A stretch of 60,844 bases of DNA, counting the filler. It is 8 parts of 8 records of this genome, joined end to end, with 100 filler letters (N's around TTAATTAATTAA, not from the genome) between each part and the next. Parts side by side here need not be neighbours in the genome. Positions count along the whole stretch, not along the records: positions 48,118 to 53,966 come from SRR31156797_15482; 7 more parts are not named here. The stretch is one strand, 5' to 3'. Below, in pieces: positions 8,613-54,066 of this stretch. A model generated the notes under the pieces. That model saw nothing but the letters and a program-made list of their open reading frames with translations, did no database searches and was not told the origin of the DNA. Position 1 is the stretch's first letter; each line of letters begins with the position of its first letter. The translations under genes and the position numbers were made by a program.

Positions 8613-8712
8613 NNNNNNNNNNNNNNNNNNNNNNNNNNNNNNNNNNNNNNNNNNNNTTAATTAATTAANNNNNNNNNNNNNNNNNNNNNNNNNNNNNNNN
8701 NNNNNNNNNNNN
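8613..8712. other. Artificial contig spacer (N-run, TTAATTAATTAA, N-run)
   Basis: Identical 100-nt spacers recur at 18177, 27707, 33888, 40183, 48018 and 53967; the 12-mer has stops in all six frames. Confidence 0.99.
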
Positions 8713-12177: not shown

Positions 12178-12546
12178 TCGCAATTCATAATCTTCATACT
12201 TATTTTATTTGCTAATTATACTGAGTTATATCGCATTCGTTTTTTTTATAGTCTATTCACTTCTGAATTGCTAATTATTAATTATAAATTCTTCAAGGTA
12301 CCTATCGGCTAGTTCCTGATTTATTGCTTATTCCTTTTGCTAAAGAATGCCCTGTTATTGGGCTTTAGGTTTTATTTAGACTTATTATGTATTGAGATAA
12401 GTTTGATTTTCTGCTTTTTTTTTTCGTTTGATACACCGTATTTTGCAAGTAATTCTAGAAAAATTTCTTTAATTGATTCGTTTTATAAATGGTTAATAAT
12501 ATAAAGCGTTGAAAAAGATTGATTTAGTGTAAATAAGTCTGTTTGA

Positions 12547-18176: not shown

Positions 18177-18277
18177 NNNNNNNNNNNNNNNNNNNNNNNN
18201 NNNNNNNNNNNNNNNNNNNNTTAATTAATTAANNNNNNNNNNNNNNNNNNNNNNNNNNNNNNNNNNNNNNNNNNNNT

Positions 18278-22287: not shown

Positions 22288-22941
22288 ATGATGAAAAAAA
22301 AAATAAAGCTTGTCACCTGCCGGGCATTATCACATCTTATTGAACCCATGGTTGACCCGGACGTGGAACGGGTGGTTCTGCCGATTTCCCTCCACTTGAA
22401 CCCCGACACCCTGAGAGCCCGTCTGATTGAAGATATTGCCAGGATAGAAGAGACCGAATGTGATATTATCCTGGGATACGGCCTGTGCGGCAGGGGGCTT
22501 GAAGGGGTGTATTCACAGAAAAGCCGATTGATCCTTCCAAGGGTGGATGATTGCGTGGGGGCTGTCCTCGGGTCCCGTTCACGCCACAAGTCCATTTTGA
22601 ATGAGAACACGGGCTGCTTTTTCCTTGAACCCACATGGATAGGCACTGAGGTCGATATTTTTGACCAGTGCCTCAAAGGTCTTGACCGTATCCCGGAAGA
22701 ATACCGGGAAGAAATTGTATGGATGGCACTCAAACACTATTCAAAATTAGCCTTGCTTCATCACGGCCTGGGCATTGAATCTTTGGCAGCCTCCAACTGC
22801 AGGCGCCTTGCCGAAAATTATAATCTTGAATTTGTACAATATTTATCCGACTTGAGCCTGTTGCAAAATTTGGTAGACGGGCACTGGACCTCCGAAGACT
22901 TCATTATAACGGGTCCGGGGCAAAAAATTCCTTTTTTCTGA
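22288..22941 (+). CDS. DUF1638-like protein
   Basis: LHLNPD, ILGYGLCG, PRVDDC..LGS; family typical of corrinoid methyltransferase loci. Confidence 0.8.
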   Translation: MMKKKIKLVTCRALSHLIEPMVDPDVERVVLPISLHLNPDTLRARLIEDIARIEETECDIILGYGLCGRGLEGVYSQKSRLILPRVDDCVGAVLGSRSRHKSILNENTGCFFLEPTWIGTEVDIFDQCLKGLDRIPEEYREEIVWMALKHYSKLALLHHGLGIESLAASNCRRLAENYNLEFVQYLSDLSLLQNLVDGHWTSEDFIITGPGQKIPFF

Positions 22942-27706: not shown

Positions 27707-27807
27707 NNNNNNNNNNNNNNNNNNNNNNNNNNNNNNNNNNNNNNNNNNNNTTAATTAATTAANNNNNNNNNNNNNNNNNNNNNNNNNNNNNNNNNNNNNN
27801 NNNNNNC

Positions 27808-33887: not shown

Positions 33888-34117
33888 NNNNNNNNNNNNN
33901 NNNNNNNNNNNNNNNNNNNNNNNNNNNNNNNTTAATTAATTAANNNNNNNNNNNNNNNNNNNNNNNNNNNNNNNNNNNNNNNNNNNNTTTTTTCCTTACG
34001 AAATATTAGGGGAAGATTCTGGTGTTGTGACGGGCTTCCGGTATCAACCCGGTCTACCCCACCTGTGAAAACAGGATAAAAACTTGCTTTTGTAAGTACG
34101 GTCAAAGCGGGCATTTT

Positions 34118-40180: not shown

Positions 40181-40282
40181 TCNNNNNNNNNNNNNNNNNN
40201 NNNNNNNNNNNNNNNNNNNNNNNNNNTTAATTAATTAANNNNNNNNNNNNNNNNNNNNNNNNNNNNNNNNNNNNNNNNNNNN

Positions 40283-48017: not shown

Positions 48018-48117
48018 NNNNNNNNNNNNNNNNNNNNNNNNNNNNNNNNNNNNNNNNNNNNTTAATTAATTAANNNNNNNNNNNNNNNNNNNNNNNNNNN
48101 NNNNNNNNNNNNNNNNN

Positions 48118-48558
48118 ACGCTCTTTTGCACGTGCTTTTTCTTCATCACGACGACCACCGCCCATAGCACAATCCACTTGCAAATCTTCTAATCCATCAA
48201 GTAAGGTTACCGTTTGTAATTTATTTCTACTAGCATCAAAACCAGTTTCTTCAATTGCCTTACCCTGATCAATTGAATCTTGTACGTAACGAACGATTAT
48301 ACGAGTTCCGGTTTCCTCCATCAGCTCATCACGAAACTGAATTGTTTCAGGAAAGTTATGCCCTGTATCTACGTGCATTAAAGCAAAAGGAACCTTTGCT
48401 GGTGCAAAAGCCTTACGCGCCAAATGAAACATGATAATTGAGTCCTTTCCTCCTGAAAATAACATCACAGGGTTTTCAAATTGAGCAGCAACTTCACGAA
48501 TCACGAAAATAGATTCCGCTTCAAGTTCTCTTAAGTGATTTATATTGTATTCCTTCAT
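48118..48558 (-). CDS. cysD: Sulfate adenylyltransferase subunit 2 (3' truncated)
   Basis: LEAESI, FSGGKDS, HVDTGHNF, GGGRRDEEKARAKER. Confidence 0.95.
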
Positions 48559-48803
48559 TCGAAAAAAATTTATTTACTTCATAACAGGCTTCAAGCCCAA
48601 TATACTTATCCAATTTTAGCTAGTAATTAACTGTTCTTAGCTTTTTAAAAATTAGATTCACACTTCTATTACCGATTCCTCGGGAGGCAATTTCAAAGAT
48701 TTCTATCAGATAAAAGTTTTACATTCACCACTACCAGCCTTCTAAGTCATTACCAATACTGTTTCTATCCTTAAAATCTCTTCAAGTTTTAGAAAATTAA
48801 GGG

Positions 48804-48811
48804 CAAATGTA
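48804..48811 (-). promoter_or_regulatory. Bacteroidetes-type -7 promoter element upstream of cysD
   Basis: TACATTTG matches TAnnTTTG; a similar TATCTTTG lies upstream of fabI at 49788-49795. Confidence 0.5.
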
Positions 48812-48868
48812 CATATTATCGTTAGATTTTAAAAATCAATTATATCTATAAAGATTAAGATTTTTCGC

Positions 48869-48901
48869 AAAAAAAAATCCAGATTTTTCAATCTGGATTT
48901 T
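48869..48901 (-). terminator. Intrinsic terminator after fabI
   Basis: AAAATCCAGATT / AATCTGGATTTT stem with a T-run on the minus strand. Confidence 0.8.
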
Positions 48902-48920
48902 AAGATAATATGTTTGAATA

Positions 48921-49760
48921 TTATTCTTTGCAATCACACGGATTGAAACTCTTATTATACTGACTCATTGCCCTGTAACTCATACCCATACTTGAGAAAC
49001 CACCATCGTGGAATAAATTCTGCATGGTTACTTTTTTTGTCAAGTCTGAGAAAAGTGTAATACAGAAGTTTGCACATTCCTGAGCATCTGCATTTCCTAA
49101 TGGTGACATTCTTTCTGAAAAGTCAATTAACGAGTCAAAACCTTTAACTCCACTACCTGCAGTAGTCATTGTTGGAGATTGAGAAATTGTATTCACACGA
49201 ACTCTCTTCTCGCGACCATAAATGTAACCAAAACTACGCGCAATAGATTCAAGCATAGCTTTGGCATCAGCCATATCGTTATACTCGAACATAGTTCTCT
49301 GTGCAGCTGCATATGACAATGCTACTACTGATCCCCATTCATTAATGGCATCTAGTTTTTTAGCCGATTGCAATACTTTATGGAATGATGTTGCAGAAAC
49401 ATCTAAGGTCTTTTTAAGATACTCGTAATTTAAATCATCGTAAGCGTGCCCCTTACGAACATTAGGAGACATACCGATAGAATGCAAAACGAAATCAACT
49501 TTTCCGCCCAAAACTTCCATAGATTTGGTAAACAATTCGTCTAAATCTTTAGGATTGGTTGCATCGGCAGGAATTACTTGTGCATTGCATTTCTTAGCCA
49601 ATTCATCGATAGTTCCCATACGAATAGAAACAGGAGTATTTGTTAAAACAATCTCTGCTCCTTCAGCAACTGCTAATTCTGCAACTTTCCAGGCAATTGA
49701 CATATCATTCAAAGCCCCGAAAATAATACCCTTTTTTCCTTTTAATAAATTATAAGACAT
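48921..49760 (-). CDS. fabI: Enoyl-ACP reductase
   Basis: IFGALNDMSIAW, LHSIGMS, YNDMADAK, NTISQSPT, HDGG (Bacteroidetes FabI). Confidence 0.93.
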   Translation of the reverse strand: MSYNLLKGKKGIIFGALNDMSIAWKVAELAVAEGAEIVLTNTPVSIRMGTIDELAKKCNAQVIPADATNPKDLDELFTKSMEVLGGKVDFVLHSIGMSPNVRKGHAYDDLNYEYLKKTLDVSATSFHKVLQSAKKLDAINEWGSVVALSYAAAQRTMFEYNDMADAKAMLESIARSFGYIYGREKRVRVNTISQSPTMTTAGSGVKGFDSLIDFSERMSPLGNADAQECANFCITLFSDLTKKVTMQNLFHDGGFSSMGMSYRAMSQYNKSFNPCDCKE

Positions 49761-49877
49761 AATTTGAAATTTTCAATTTTTCAGCCTCAAAGATAACCAT
49801 TAAATTCCATAATGATTCCAAATAAGCGCATTAATTAAGACTGAATAAATTCTTTAATTGAAAATGCAAATTATTAT

Positions 49878-51533
49878 TTAGCTATCCAACAACACCTTAG
49901 CATTATCAAGTGCTGCTTGTGTAAGGTCTGCACCACTCAACATCTTAGCCAACTCTTCGAGACGACTTTGCTTATCGAGAAGTACAATATTTGAATAGGT
50001 TTCACGCTCGTCATCTGCTTTGTATACCTTGTAGTGATATTTACCCTTTCCTGCAATTTGAGGTAGGTGAGTAATACTTATTACCTGAATATTTTCTGCC
50101 ATTTGAGTCATCATAGCACCCATTTTATCAGCTATTTCTCCTGAAACTCCAGTATCAATTTCATCAAAAACAATAGAAGGCAAAGCGGTTGATGATGATA
50201 CTAAATACTTAATACTTAGCATCAAACGAGACAATTCACCACCTGAAGCAACACGCTGTACCTCTTCAAGGTTACCATTCTTATTGGCACTAAACAAAAA
50301 GCACAAGTTATCTGCTCCTAAATACTGAAAATCTTCGTTATTAGAAATTTGAATCTTAAAATTAGCATTAGGTATTCCCAATTGTACCAATTGTGTAACA
50401 ATAGTTTTCTCTATATCTGGGATGGCTCTTTTTCTGCTATTTGTAAGGCTTACAGCTGCTTTATTTAGCTTTTTTATTTGTTCTTCTAATTGTTTCTTCA
50501 AATCTTCAATTAAATCATCACTTGATTCTATCTTCCCAACTTTCAGATTCAATTCTTCTCTAATTTGAATCAATTCATCTATACTATCTACTCTATGTTT
50601 TTGTTGCAAAGAGTAAATTGCATCCAATCGCTGATTTAAGAAATCTATTCTGTTCGCATCAAATTCAACCAATTCATTACTGCGGTCCAATTCCTGAGCC
50701 AAATCCTGCAATTCGATATAGGAACTTTCGAATCTCTTATAATAATCATTTGCCTCAGGAAATACATTCTGAATTTGAGACATGGCATTTCTAGCTTCTC
50801 TCAATTGTGAAATAATGGAACCATCTCCCTCCGAAAGATGTCCGTATGAAGTATACAAAGCAGATTTAATCTCTTCCGCATGACTTAAAGTTTCCAACTC
50901 TGACTCCATTTCTCTTTGTTCACCCTCTACCAGGTTAGCTTCAAGTAATTGTTCCAGTTGAAATTGAAAATAATCCAAATCAGCTTTCTCTTTTTCTGCA
51001 AGTTCAGACTGACGTTTTAGTTCCTTTTTCAGGTTCCGAAATTCAGTATATTGCTTTTGATACTTTAAAAGCAAGTCTGAATTCTTTGCGTAAGTATCAA
51101 CTATTCCTATCTGATATTCGAAACTACCCAAAACCAAATTCTGATTCTGACTGTGAATATCAACCAATCGAACTCCAAGCTCTTTAAGAATTTTTAAATT
51201 TACAGGTGAATCATTTACAAAAGCACGGGTTTTCCCATTAGGAGCAATTTCACGACGTACCAACATCTCCTTTTCGTAATCCAAGTCATACTCCTCAAAA
51301 AAGTTTTCTAATTTGTATTTGGCTATAGAGAATGAACATTCAATTACACATTTTTTATCCCTATTCTTAAGAACATTGCCTTCGACTCTTTGTCCCAAAA
51401 CAAGCGATAAAGCACCTAATAAAATCGATTTCCCCGAACCCGTTTCTCCCGTAATTACAGAAAATCCATCAGAAAAATCTATTTCCAGGTGATTAATAAG
51501 TGCGAAGTTTTGAATCGAAATTGACTGAAGCAT
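49878..51533 (-). CDS. recN: DNA repair protein RecN
   Basis: TGETGSGKS, ASGGELSR, FDEIDTGVSG, ITHLPQIA. Confidence 0.97.
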   Translation of the reverse strand: MLQSISIQNFALINHLEIDFSDGFSVITGETGSGKSILLGALSLVLGQRVEGNVLKNRDKKCVIECSFSIAKYKLENFFEEYDLDYEKEMLVRREIAPNGKTRAFVNDSPVNLKILKELGVRLVDIHSQNQNLVLGSFEYQIGIVDTYAKNSDLLLKYQKQYTEFRNLKKELKRQSELAEKEKADLDYFQFQLEQLLEANLVEGEQREMESELETLSHAEEIKSALYTSYGHLSEGDGSIISQLREARNAMSQIQNVFPEANDYYKRFESSYIELQDLAQELDRSNELVEFDANRIDFLNQRLDAIYSLQQKHRVDSIDELIQIREELNLKVGKIESSDDLIEDLKKQLEEQIKKLNKAAVSLTNSRKRAIPDIEKTIVTQLVQLGIPNANFKIQISNNEDFQYLGADNLCFLFSANKNGNLEEVQRVASGGELSRLMLSIKYLVSSSTALPSIVFDEIDTGVSGEIADKMGAMMTQMAENIQVISITHLPQIAGKGKYHYKVYKADDERETYSNIVLLDKQSRLEELAKMLSGADLTQAALDNAKVLLDS

Positions 51534-51603
51534 ATTAGTACGAATGAAATGTAATTTTTGACAAAAATAATCAATCAGAAATCATTTACTAGTCCTGTTT
51601 TTA

Positions 51604-52500
51604 TTATTGACCAATGATTTTATTGTATTTTTTAATATTAGCGGGATCTATCTCATTGAGAATATTGAAAACACGTTTCTTTTCGTCAGAGAAAGACTCT
51701 GAGAAAATATGCACCAACTCATCGGCTTTAGCATCGAAAAAGATCTTTAAAATAAATGCTCCTGGTTTGGCTCTGTATGCTTTTTGAAGCAAACGCATAC
51801 TTTCAGCAATTTCAGCTCTCGATTCCGTCAAATGATCAGACATTCTATCCAAACCCAATCGATGATATCTATACAAACATTCACGAACAGGACTGTATGC
51901 ATTATTTAAAACATTCTCAATCAACCAATATCTATTATCACGACTCTCGTAAGCTTTCCAACCTGGCACATTCGAATTTTGCATCTTATTTACAATAGCT
52001 TCTGCCCTTGAAAAATAAGGAGTTCCTCCATCCATTGCGAAAGTGTCATAATCCAAACCAAGAATTAAATTTGCGTAAAAAGCCAACAATCCAGTTAGGT
52101 TAGTTGGTGTTACAGTTTCATTAAAATCAATTGATTGATATTCGACATATTTAAATTGTACATCATCATCTTTAAAATTTAACAAAACCGTATTGTAAGA
52201 AGAGTTGTAAACCGGACGGCTTGCCTGAACCTGTACACTTCCTCGAAACTCATCAGCCGATATTTGCTCAGTTAAATTAAACAGAAATGTACATTCTATT
52301 CTTTCATCATAACTATAAACATGATCAGTCCAGCGGCGAGAATTCATGAACTCATTAATAGCAGTTTGCATGGTTCTAAAAACCTGCTTATTAGTTCCTT
52401 GAATTTGCTGACTAACTATCTGAATATTACATCTTAATTCTTGAGAAAAAACAGGAAATGACAGTAAACAAACCAGTAACAGTACAAAAATTTTACGCAT
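51604..52500 (-). CDS. DUF4835-family (PorD-like) exported protein
   Basis: Signal peptide, QELRCNI, RPVYNSSY, LGLDYDTF, FFDAKADE; usual coaBC-DUF4835-recN synteny of Bacteroidetes. Confidence 0.8.
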   Translation of the reverse strand: MRKIFVLLLVCLLSFPVFSQELRCNIQIVSQQIQGTNKQVFRTMQTAINEFMNSRRWTDHVYSYDERIECTFLFNLTEQISADEFRGSVQVQASRPVYNSSYNTVLLNFKDDDVQFKYVEYQSIDFNETVTPTNLTGLLAFYANLILGLDYDTFAMDGGTPYFSRAEAIVNKMQNSNVPGWKAYESRDNRYWLIENVLNNAYSPVRECLYRYHRLGLDRMSDHLTESRAEIAESMRLLQKAYRAKPGAFILKIFFDAKADELVHIFSESFSDEKKRVFNILNEIDPANIKKYNKIIGQ

Positions 52501-52537
52501 AATTATATATTCAAAAGATTACAGCTAAAGTTAAAAA

Positions 52538-53212
52538 TTAAAACGAAACAGTTGAAGAATTATTCTCCACAAAATCAATTAATTCATTTACAATATCTTT
52601 CGCGACCTCCGATTTGAGCTTTAAATCAAAACGCTTAGCAGTTCCTTTATTATTTATAATTGATATCTTATTCGTATCGTGCTGGAAACCCGCTCCTTTA
52701 TCATTTAACGAGTTTAGAACTATAAAATCTAAGTTCTTCTTCTCCAACTTTAGTTTGGCGTTAAAATCCTCATCATTGGTTTCCAATGCAAAACCTACTA
52801 AAAATTGTTTGTCTGTTTTCAACTGCCCTAATGAGGCTGCGATATCCTTTGTTGGAGTCAATTCTATGGAGTAATTCTCTTTGCCTCTTTTCACCTTTTT
52901 ATCCATTGGATCAAGTGGTGTAAAATCAGCTACCGCGGCAGTCATAATTCCCCCATCACAATCAGAAAAATGCTCAACAGTGGCTTGATACATTTCTTTG
53001 GCCGAGACAACATCAATTCTCTCAATATTTGAATGCGTTGTTTGTTGTGAAGTTGGTCCACTTATTAAAACAACATGGGCGCCATTATCAGCTAATTCTT
53101 CTGCAATGGCATAACCCATTTTTCCTGATGAAAAATTTCCGATAAATCTTACCGGATCAATTTTTTCGTAAGTTGGACCTGTCGTAATCAGGATTCTCTT
53201 ATTACTTAACTT
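52538..53212 (-). CDS. coaB: CoaB (PPC ligase) half of CoaBC, reachable only by a -1 shift in the A10 run
   Basis: The -1 frame reads KLSNKRILITTGPTYEKIDPVRFIGNFSSGKMG..AAVADF..VGFALET; no start codon precedes the conserved N-terminal motif. Confidence 0.9.
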   Translation of the reverse strand, partial: KLSNKRILITTGPTYEKIDPVRFIGNFSSGKMGYAIAEELADNGAHVVLISGPTSQQTTHSNIERIDVVSAKEMYQATVEHFSDCDGGIMTAAVADFTPLDPMDKKVKRGKENYSIELTPTKDIAASLGQLKTDKQFLVGFALETNDEDFNAKLKLEKKNLDFIVLNSLNDKGAGFQHDTNKISIINNKGTAKRFDLKLKSEVAKDIVNELIDFVENNSSTVSF

Positions 53213-53763
53213 TTTTTTTTATTCTCGAAGAAATCACTCAGCTTTTTAGCAATAATTTCAGGCTCCTCCATTCTACCCTTTCCATACAAACCACTAGCCA
53301 ATTCTCCACTCGATGGTTCGATAAAAGAATCTCCATATGATCGTAAGATATCCATGTTACGAAGAGTTGCCGGATGCTTAAACATGTCCAAATCCATAGC
53401 CGGAGCATGAATAACTGGACATTTTGCCGATAAATATGTTGTAAGTAACAAATTATCACAAATACCATGAGCCATTTTTGCCATTGTATTGGCAGTAGTT
53501 GGAGCTACTAATAAAGCATCTGCCCAAATCCCTAAATCGACATGACTGTTCCACTCACCATCATCGTGCTTGAAAAAATCCGATAGAACCGTATTCTTCG
53601 ACAAGGTTGCCATTGTTACTGGCGATATAAACTCTTTTGCATAAGGAGTCATTATTACCTTAACAGTTGCTCCTTCTTTAACTAATAATCGCACTAAAGT
53701 TGCAGCTTTATATGCTGCAATACTTGCCGTAACACCAAGTAAGATATTTTTACCTTTTAACAT
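53206..53763 (-). CDS. coaC: CoaC (PPC decarboxylase flavoprotein) half of CoaBC
   Basis: GVTASIAAYKA, SHVDLG, APTTAN, APAMD, LASGLYGKGRM; ends NKKKS* just after the A10 run. Confidence 0.92.
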   Translation of the reverse strand: MLKGKNILLGVTASIAAYKAATLVRLLVKEGATVKVIMTPYAKEFISPVTMATLSKNTVLSDFFKHDDGEWNSHVDLGIWADALLVAPTTANTMAKMAHGICDNLLLTTYLSAKCPVIHAPAMDLDMFKHPATLRNMDILRSYGDSFIEPSSGELASGLYGKGRMEEPEIIAKKLSDFFENKKKS

Positions 53764-53829
53764 AAGCTCAAGTTAAAATAAAAAAAGTTCCCTCTTGTTA
53801 AAAAAGGGAACCTGAAAACTATCTAGTTA

Positions 53830-53966
53830 TTACTCTTCTGTTTTTGCTTCTTTCGCAGGATTTCTGTAATAAATATCTCCATTGATAAACTCCTCAACTG
53901 CAATTAGAGTTGGCTTTGGAAGTCTTTCGTAGTACTTAGAGATTTCAATCTGCTCACGATTTTCAA
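53830..53966 (-). CDS. rpoZ: RNA polymerase omega subunit, Bacteroidetes type (5' truncated)
   Basis: ENREQIEISKYYERLPKPTLIAVEEFINGDIYYRNP; upstream of coaBC. Confidence 0.85.
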
Positions 53967-54066
53967 NNNNNNNNNNNNNNNNNNNNNNNNNNNNNNNNNN
54001 NNNNNNNNNNTTAATTAATTAANNNNNNNNNNNNNNNNNNNNNNNNNNNNNNNNNNNNNNNNNNNN

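Follow-up and report, generated by a model that had tools for sequence, protein, structure and literature searches.

In coaBC of this Marinifilum-like marine Bacteroidales bacterium, the reading frame is broken by -1 at an A10 run in the linker that joins the two domains. The break is old and inherited, and CoaB is probably produced as part of a fusion created by slippage. Expression of CoaB almost certainly depends on recoding at this A-run, and we infer that polymerase slippage is the likely main route. The gene lies in a 60,844-nucleotide stretch of DNA (the window), a draft in which eight contigs are joined by linkers of the form N44-TTAATTAATTAA-N44; coaBC is located on the piece spanning 48118-53966. 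As the window strings together eight short contigs, adjoining pieces are not necessarily neighbours in the genome. The relevant features are listed in Table 1.

Table 1. Features of the window at and around the coaBC junction, and the linkers between contigs.
Feature	Position	Strand	Basis
Contig linkers, N44-TTAATTAATTAA-N44 (n=7)	8613-8712, 18177-18276, 27707-27806, 33888-33987, 40183-40282, 48018-48117, 53967-54066		
RecN/SMC-like ATPase gene, further downstream	49878-51533	-	Pfam SMC_N, 8.8e-19
DUF4835 protein, downstream neighbour	51604-52500	-	Pfam PF16119, 2e-106
CoaB frame, 224 aa, phosphopantothenate-cysteine ligase domain, -1 relative to coaC	52538-53212	-	Pfam DFP
coaC reading frame, 185 aa, phosphopantothenoylcysteine decarboxylase domain	53206-53763	-	ORF list; Pfam
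CoaC stop codon TAA	53208-53206	-	Sequence
A10 run (T10 on the plus strand) in the CoaC-CoaB linker, candidate slippage/frameshift site	53211-53220	-	Sequence, homopolymer list
TAA closing the CoaB frame, directly upstream of the run	53219-53221	-	Sequence
Terminator-like hairpin and T-run belonging to the gene upstream, immediately ahead of coaC	53785-53813	-	12-pair stem

The two domains of coaBC lie in different reading frames

On the minus strand the junction reads GAG AAT AAA AAA AAA AGT TAA, and the CoaC frame stops two bases past the A10 run. The -1 frame continues through the codons AAG TTA AGT AAT AAG AGA ATC CTG ATT ACG ACA GGT CCA, which translate to KLSNKRILITTGPT. No ATG, GTG or TTG precedes the GPT motif in the CoaB frame of the window. 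The earliest ORF with such a start begins at 53119 (193 aa), 31 residues inside the domain.

Both domains are whole, as each covers its Pfam profile completely or nearly so. CoaC matches Flavoprotein (PF02441, 1.7e-34, profile positions 1-161 of 162) and the 224-residue CoaB frame matches DFP (PF04127, 7.6e-67, positions 1-186 of 186). The closest solved CoaB structure (PDB: 5int) aligns from residue 2 of the CoaB frame, indicating that the CoaB fold starts directly after the A-run. The gene resembles bifunctional CoaBC proteins (PDB: 6tgv, 1u7u) in its domains and their order, and both domains have full-length Pfam matches; 5int is a stand-alone CoaB. Unlike in an ordinary CoaBC, the domains are encoded in different DNA frames and CoaB lacks its own start codon; one open reading frame for both domains, as expected of a bifunctional CoaBC, is not found in the window because CoaB is in the -1 frame. 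A search of Rfam returned no match at the junction, and its sub-threshold matches lie solely upstream of coaC.

The sequence and ORF list bear out the original prediction in every detail of the junction (the A10 run, the CoaC stop at 53206 and the -1 CoaB frame), including a CoaB frame that is shut by the TAA at 53221-53219 and lacks a start codon. Its statement that both halves are otherwise intact agrees with the full-length Pfam matches.

The other two 10-base runs in the window break no gene. One (22294-22303) is in frame at the very start of an ORF at 22288-22941 (ATG ATG AAA AAA AAA ATA), and the other (12415-12424) has only a 55-residue ORF at the site.

The A10 run is found in independent DNA assemblies

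The main alternative named in the original prediction was a homopolymer assembly error, in which case the true gene would be in frame with A11 or A8. The window is a draft of eight short linker-joined contigs and long homopolymers are error-prone, both of which favor such an error. We mapped contigs of public sequencing runs on positions 52400-53900 of the window. For X1, the probable source run, the Logan contig (depth ~1300) has zero differences from the window and carries A10. An oyster-metagenome DNA run (X2) covers 52400-53513 with six substitutions and no gaps, and a microbial-mat DNA run (X4) covers 53094-53900 with a sole gap at 53780; both carry A10. So do a genome of the species that is 100% identical in CoaC and 99% identical in CoaB (L140, G071) and a 50.6-kb metagenome contig (L202). 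A10 is therefore present in four independent DNA assemblies of the species besides the source, and no run-length variation among strains was seen across these five. The original prediction proposed deciding between A10 and A11 from the reads: these DNA assemblies have A10, neither A11 nor A8, and the suspected assembly error is not borne out. The comparison with relatives described below bears on the same question.

Two further observations were made on these contigs. The A7 run at 53780-53786 (T7 on the minus strand), which lies in the tail of the terminator-like hairpin that precedes coaC, has lost one base relative to the window in X2, X4 and the RNA-seq contig X14. The probable source run also contains another contig (depth ~157) that matches only 53096-53125 and 53435-53495, with 307 differing letters between; it presumably represents coaBC from a different organism in the run.

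The break recurs at the same linker in two families

The 80 best genome loci, out of 580 confirmed relatives, were sorted by linker run and frame: all 59 with a linker A-run of at most eight are in frame, and the 21 with a run of at least nine comprise 13 in-frame and eight out-of-frame loci. Seven of these eight share the -1 offset of the window. The -1 loci include Marinifilum fragile, an Ancylomarina MAG, a Labilibaculum MAG and two Mariniphaga MAGs, as well as an A9 locus from a low-coverage MAG (L023). The eighth locus (L071) has an offset of +1, and its CoaC alignment reaches only residue 135.

The Marinifilum family group (the family of G001) was sampled with one genome per species (97 genomes, 94 matched). 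CoaC and CoaB occur as two adjacent pieces in 34 of the 94, as fragments across contigs in two and as one piece in 58. All 34 junctions have the -1 offset at A10 (25) or A11 (9), and in all 34 the CoaC stop follows 1-3 nt past the run. The A11 forms differ from A10G by one substitution that leaves the offset unaffected. Four of the split loci are on chromosome-sized contigs of 4.76-5.72 Mb. Among the one-piece members, 30 were fetched: the run is at most eight long in 28 and an in-frame A10 or A11 in two.

In a second family (that of G004), 187 of 201 sampled genomes were matched. At least two pieces were found in 96, of which two are contig-end cuts, leaving ~94 that look split; five single-match genomes are fragmentary and ~86 have one piece. 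We examined 43 junctions, 40 from two-piece genomes plus L007, L012 and L031. The -1 offset is found in 41 of the 43, at A10 (39) or A11 (2), and the remaining two have an offset of +1, at A9 and A12. One-piece members of this family also have the run: 18 of the 20 fetched carry an in-frame A9-A11. What is conserved is thus the long A-run, whereas the frames on its two sides relate differently in different lineages.

Across 78 split species the run is A10 in 65, A11 in 11, and A9 and A12 in one each. In 76 of these the stop lies 1-4 nt past the run; in two +1 cases it lies 8 nt past. The split-gene hosts have genomes of free-living size (3.5-6.7 Mb). An even sample of the whole order (401 genomes, 376 matched) contains ~52 genomes with the two-piece signature, as judged from match layout only. 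The original prediction also proposed looking in relatives for an out-of-frame A-run at this linker, and such a run indeed recurs in 34/34 and 41/43 split species of the two families.

The sole A12 junction, with the +1 offset, is that of L162 (G134:C1, on a contig of 3.97 Mb), which has no preceding start codon. It would be a variant of the same site that needs the loss of one A or the gain of two. Outside both families, L013, L054 (Dysgonomonas), L043 (a Prevotella MAG), L056 and L017 likewise carry an in-frame A10 or A11 at this linker; the long run thus has a wider distribution than the frame break.

We placed all fetched loci on a tree of CoaC and CoaB with the linker excluded (128 rows, 78 split and 50 in frame, a non-random sample). 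The frame state changes seven times on this tree, compared with a mean of 39.7 for shuffled labels, and none of 500 shuffles is as low. The window's clade, starred in the tree, comprises 36 rows, of which 35 are split; the other (L081) is an in-frame revertant inside the split clade.

These patterns count against a homopolymer error. The offset is common to the split species of two families, the frame state tracks phylogeny, A10G and A11 variants differ by a substitution with the offset unchanged, and in-frame A10/A11 runs assemble normally in 18 of the 20 in-frame relatives of the second family. That frame breaks were met solely at runs of at least nine among the best 80 of 580 relatives would fit an error. 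Set against the A10 of the source run at depth ~1300 and of the four independent assemblies, the explanation is effectively refuted, and we give it next to no chance.

The CoaB frame behind the break is under purifying selection

CoaB is intact behind the break in 35/35 sequences (208-224 aa). Its Nei-Gojobori dN/dS has a median of 0.064 and a maximum of 0.116 (42 pairs with dS<1), and a median pS of 0.75 indicates that synonymous sites are saturated across the clade. The median dN/dS of CoaC is 0.032. In the five split genomes checked, PF04127 has exactly one match per genome, the one behind the break. Taken together, the intact CoaB, its low dN/dS, the saturated synonymous sites and the sole PF04127 match indicate that the break is old and that the downstream frame is needed by the cell. 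We conclude that this frame is under purifying selection, with no spare coaB in 5/5 genomes checked.

A decaying pseudogene, in which CoaB is lost and pantetheine is salvaged, has a precedent in insect symbionts, for which one study describes coaBC pseudogenes and proposes pantethine salvage (PMC4898801). Homopolymers can also vary at the DNA level, and a change in run length could turn the gene into a phase-variable switch. The pseudogene reading is already contradicted by the selection on CoaB, whose frame is intact in every sequence of the clade at a dN/dS of 0.064 with saturated synonymous sites. Phase variation is at odds with the A10 found in all five DNA assemblies of the species group (source, X2, X4, L140 and L202), and the split state is stable over whole clades, which speaks against a switch as well as decay. 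We regard both as highly improbable.

Independent initiation of CoaB is not general

The gene may instead have undergone true fission into a separate coaC and coaB, with translation of CoaB initiated at a rare codon or reinitiated behind the CoaC stop. NCBI holds CoaB-only proteins of 210-217 residues that begin with MITTGPT, MLITTGPT or MTNKK. An ATG, GTG or TTG occurs in the CoaB frame before GPT in 20 of the 78 split species, mostly inside the codons of the first beta-strand (for example VMITTGPT). In view of the early start codons and the rare-start proteins at NCBI, some independent initiation of CoaB may occur. In one locus (L151, G135:C154) an ATG immediately precedes an A9 run, a configuration resembling true fission, and the proteins P0123 and P0135, with an ATG a few codons before KKK, may likewise represent fissioned lineages. 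The N-termini found among these three, with an ATG just before the A-run, are MKKKL..., MQIKKKL... and MIFLSQKKKL....

No ATG, GTG or TTG precedes GPT in the other 58 of the 78 split species, the window included, so independent initiation of CoaB is not general. The annotated starts fall on differing rare codons at differing positions, and starting there would remove part of the stretch, aligned from residue 2, that matches the solved CoaB fold. Fission also leaves unexplained why at least nine A's are retained and why an RNA contig of another strain (X14) has A11. As an account of the split gene, we consider it improbable.

Slippage on the A-run could produce both CoaC and a CoaC-CoaB fusion

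We propose that the unaltered A10 message would yield free CoaC (185 aa), which stops two bases past the run. RNA polymerase would at times slip on the A-run and add one A, giving an A11 message (A8 would also be in frame), and such slipped messages would encode a CoaC-CoaB fusion, the sole route to the essential CoaB domain. Slippage of the ribosome into the -1 frame on A_AAA_AAA perhaps contributes. One gene would thus give rise to two products, free CoaC and CoaBC; together these may set subunit stoichiometry, and the ratio of the two may matter.

Several features of the junction are those of programmed slippage. A homopolymeric run of about nine or more A's is located at the frame junction, A10 in the window and A9-A12 in 78/78 split species. 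These A's are kept even though AAA accounts for only 70% of the lysine codons elsewhere in the gene. Stops follow at once in both frames other than that of CoaB.

The sole RNA-seq contig compared (X14, depth ~10, 52938-53337) has one extra base in the run, giving an in-frame A11; it comes from a different strain, and contigs hide length mixtures. That strain is a close relative, as it shares five substitutions and the deletion at 53780 with the A10-bearing X2 and X4. We take its A11 as a pointer toward slippage and not as proof, given that the strain could be genomically A11, in a clade that does contain an in-frame revertant (L081), or the RNA library could hold DNA. The gap in X14 at ~53369-53521 is uninformative.

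Programmed -1 ribosomal frameshifting on A_AAA_AAA, perhaps helped by the CoaC stop, would leave the mRNA at A10. The CoaC frame (A AAA AAA AAA AGT TAA) holds heptamers of the X_XXY_YYZ type, with A_AAA_AAA lying within AAT AAA AAA AAA AGT, and the proximity of the stop to the run in nearly all split species (76/78) is in keeping with this mechanism. Its protein product would be identical to that of an A11 message: both give the predicted fusion ...ENKKKKLSNKR.... A conserved stimulatory RNA structure was not found after the run at stimulator distance, where alifold energies are 0 and -1.3. The downstream folding z-score has a median of -0.56, and that of the window's downstream 60 nt is +0.86. 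A hairpin ~30 nt past the run occurs in 13 of 35 sequences of one family and is absent in the window and the second family. Furthermore, a heptamer needs seven bases, yet 78/78 split species keep 9-12 A's, and the A11 of X14, from a different but closely related strain, also argues against a message that stays at A10. Between the two mechanisms, the evidence leans to transcriptional slippage; ribosomal frameshifting as the main route is unlikely, though less so than fission.

The hairpin ~30 nt past the run (in L111-L118, L141 and L002, Ancylomarina-type) is formed by the GPTYEKIDP codons and has a z-score of about -3. A weak terminator-like hairpin with a T-rich tail is found within coaB at 53138-53156 on the minus strand, 55-70 nt past the run. 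A genuine terminator at this place could cause early termination of untranslated (A10) messages. It may also be due to chance, as two such sites were found and 0.7 are expected.

Protein searches add little on either side. Fused proteins reach at most 92% identity to the window's CoaC, and the 92% match is a "LOW QUALITY PROTEIN" that the NCBI pipeline bridged. RNA contigs are too short for proteins of such length, which makes this search weak evidence either way. A search with the first 60 residues of CoaB returned annotated CoaB-only proteins that start at rare codons, and none of its matches was a fragment of the window's species spanning the junction.

The original prediction proposed recoding by a -1 frameshift or transcriptional slippage. 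This proposal is supported by the real A10, its recurrence in relatives, the selection on CoaB and the absence of a spare coaB in 5/5 genomes.

Relation to known recoded genes

Our literature searches found no published description of coaBC as a recoded gene. The text of the GeneTack survey, without its supplementary tables, contains no mention of pantothen, coaBC or dfp (PMC3711429), and its supplements could list such a cluster. The accessible part of a 2016 recoding review likewise contains none of these terms (PMC5009743).

The closest proven analogue is tssM1 of Citrobacter rodentium, which, with tssM of Yersinia pseudotuberculosis, undergoes transcriptional frameshifting (Gueguen et al. 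2014, PMC4256274). According to that study, tssM1 has an 11-A run before a premature stop, slippage adds A's and generates a short and a full-length form, both forms and their ratio are required, and the mechanism was proven experimentally. The coaBC gene is similar in that its A-run lies directly before a stop and one gene is predicted to give short and full-length forms. The tssM gene is an accessory secretion gene of a few enterobacteria, whereas coaBC belongs to core CoA biosynthesis and is broken in dozens of species of two families. In contrast to the proven mechanism of tssM1, that of coaBC is backed by one RNA contig.

The 2016 review also describes slippage at an A9 run in dnaX of Thermus thermophilus (Atkins et al. 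2016, PMC5009743). As described there, this too is a cellular housekeeping gene with an A-run, nearby stops in the other frames and two product lengths. The direction differs: in Thermus dnaX the zero frame encodes the long product and slippage the short one, whereas in coaBC the zero frame would encode the short CoaC and slippage would give the long, essential product.

Poly(A)-tract frameshifts in Buchnera and Blochmannia are rescued by polymerase slippage (Tamas 2008 and Wernegreen 2010, as cited in PMC4389277 and PMC5009743). Like coaBC, these genes are out of frame at a long A-run and otherwise intact, and they are regarded as functional via slippage-corrected transcripts. They belong to AT-rich, eroding endosymbiont genomes, in which the breaks are viewed as tolerated damage. 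The hosts of split coaBC, unlike these endosymbionts, have genomes of 3.5-6.7 Mb, and the same site persists from genus to genus, with the downstream frame under strong selection.

E. coli dnaX uses a -1 ribosomal frameshift on A_AAA_AAG, which depends on a hairpin downstream and a Shine-Dalgarno-like stimulator upstream. The coaBC junction resembles it in having a lysine-codon slippery heptamer and a -1 shift. Unlike in E. coli dnaX, no conserved structure was found at coaBC and the run is longer than the heptamer. This class of lysine-codon slippery motifs is described in PMC4066793. The general phenomenon at coaBC, conserved recoding at a poly-A run that is most likely transcriptional slippage, is thus already known. 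Unusual are the essential core enzyme, the many free-living species of two families, and the coexistence of in-frame, out-of-frame and apparently fissioned states around the run.

Annotation and significance

Treatment of the break at NCBI is inconsistent (P0001, P0122, P0124, P0126, P0170 and P0179). One protein is a bridged "LOW QUALITY PROTEIN", and others are CoaB-only with differing rare start codons and are named "phosphopantothenoylcysteine decarboxylase", the activity of the other domain. Annotation pipelines label the gene as a low-quality protein, as a pseudogene or as a CoaB with an invented rare start. As a consequence, CoA synthesis in these groups may be wrongly scored as broken by metabolic reconstructions and completeness checks.

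To our knowledge, few cellular genes outside mobile elements show conserved recoding, and dependence of an essential, near-universal enzyme on it is rarer still. Here, dozens of free-living marine species apparently make CoaB solely through an error-like event at an A-run. Such an event would be under strong selection, and the site would be useful for measuring polymerase slippage in Bacteroidota.

At less than even confidence, we speculate that the linker A-run is an old, selected two-product device in at least two families of marine Bacteroidales, yielding free CoaC and CoaBC through polymerase slippage with either in-frame or out-of-frame DNA. The frame state, which flips only a few times, would set the product ratio, and the ATG-bearing lineages (L151, P0123 and P0135) would represent the end point of fission. 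The mix of in-frame, out-of-frame and ATG-bearing lineages may show how fused genes separate. If the A-run is indeed such a device, it would provide a stepwise route from a fused to a split gene through a recoding intermediate in a core metabolic enzyme.
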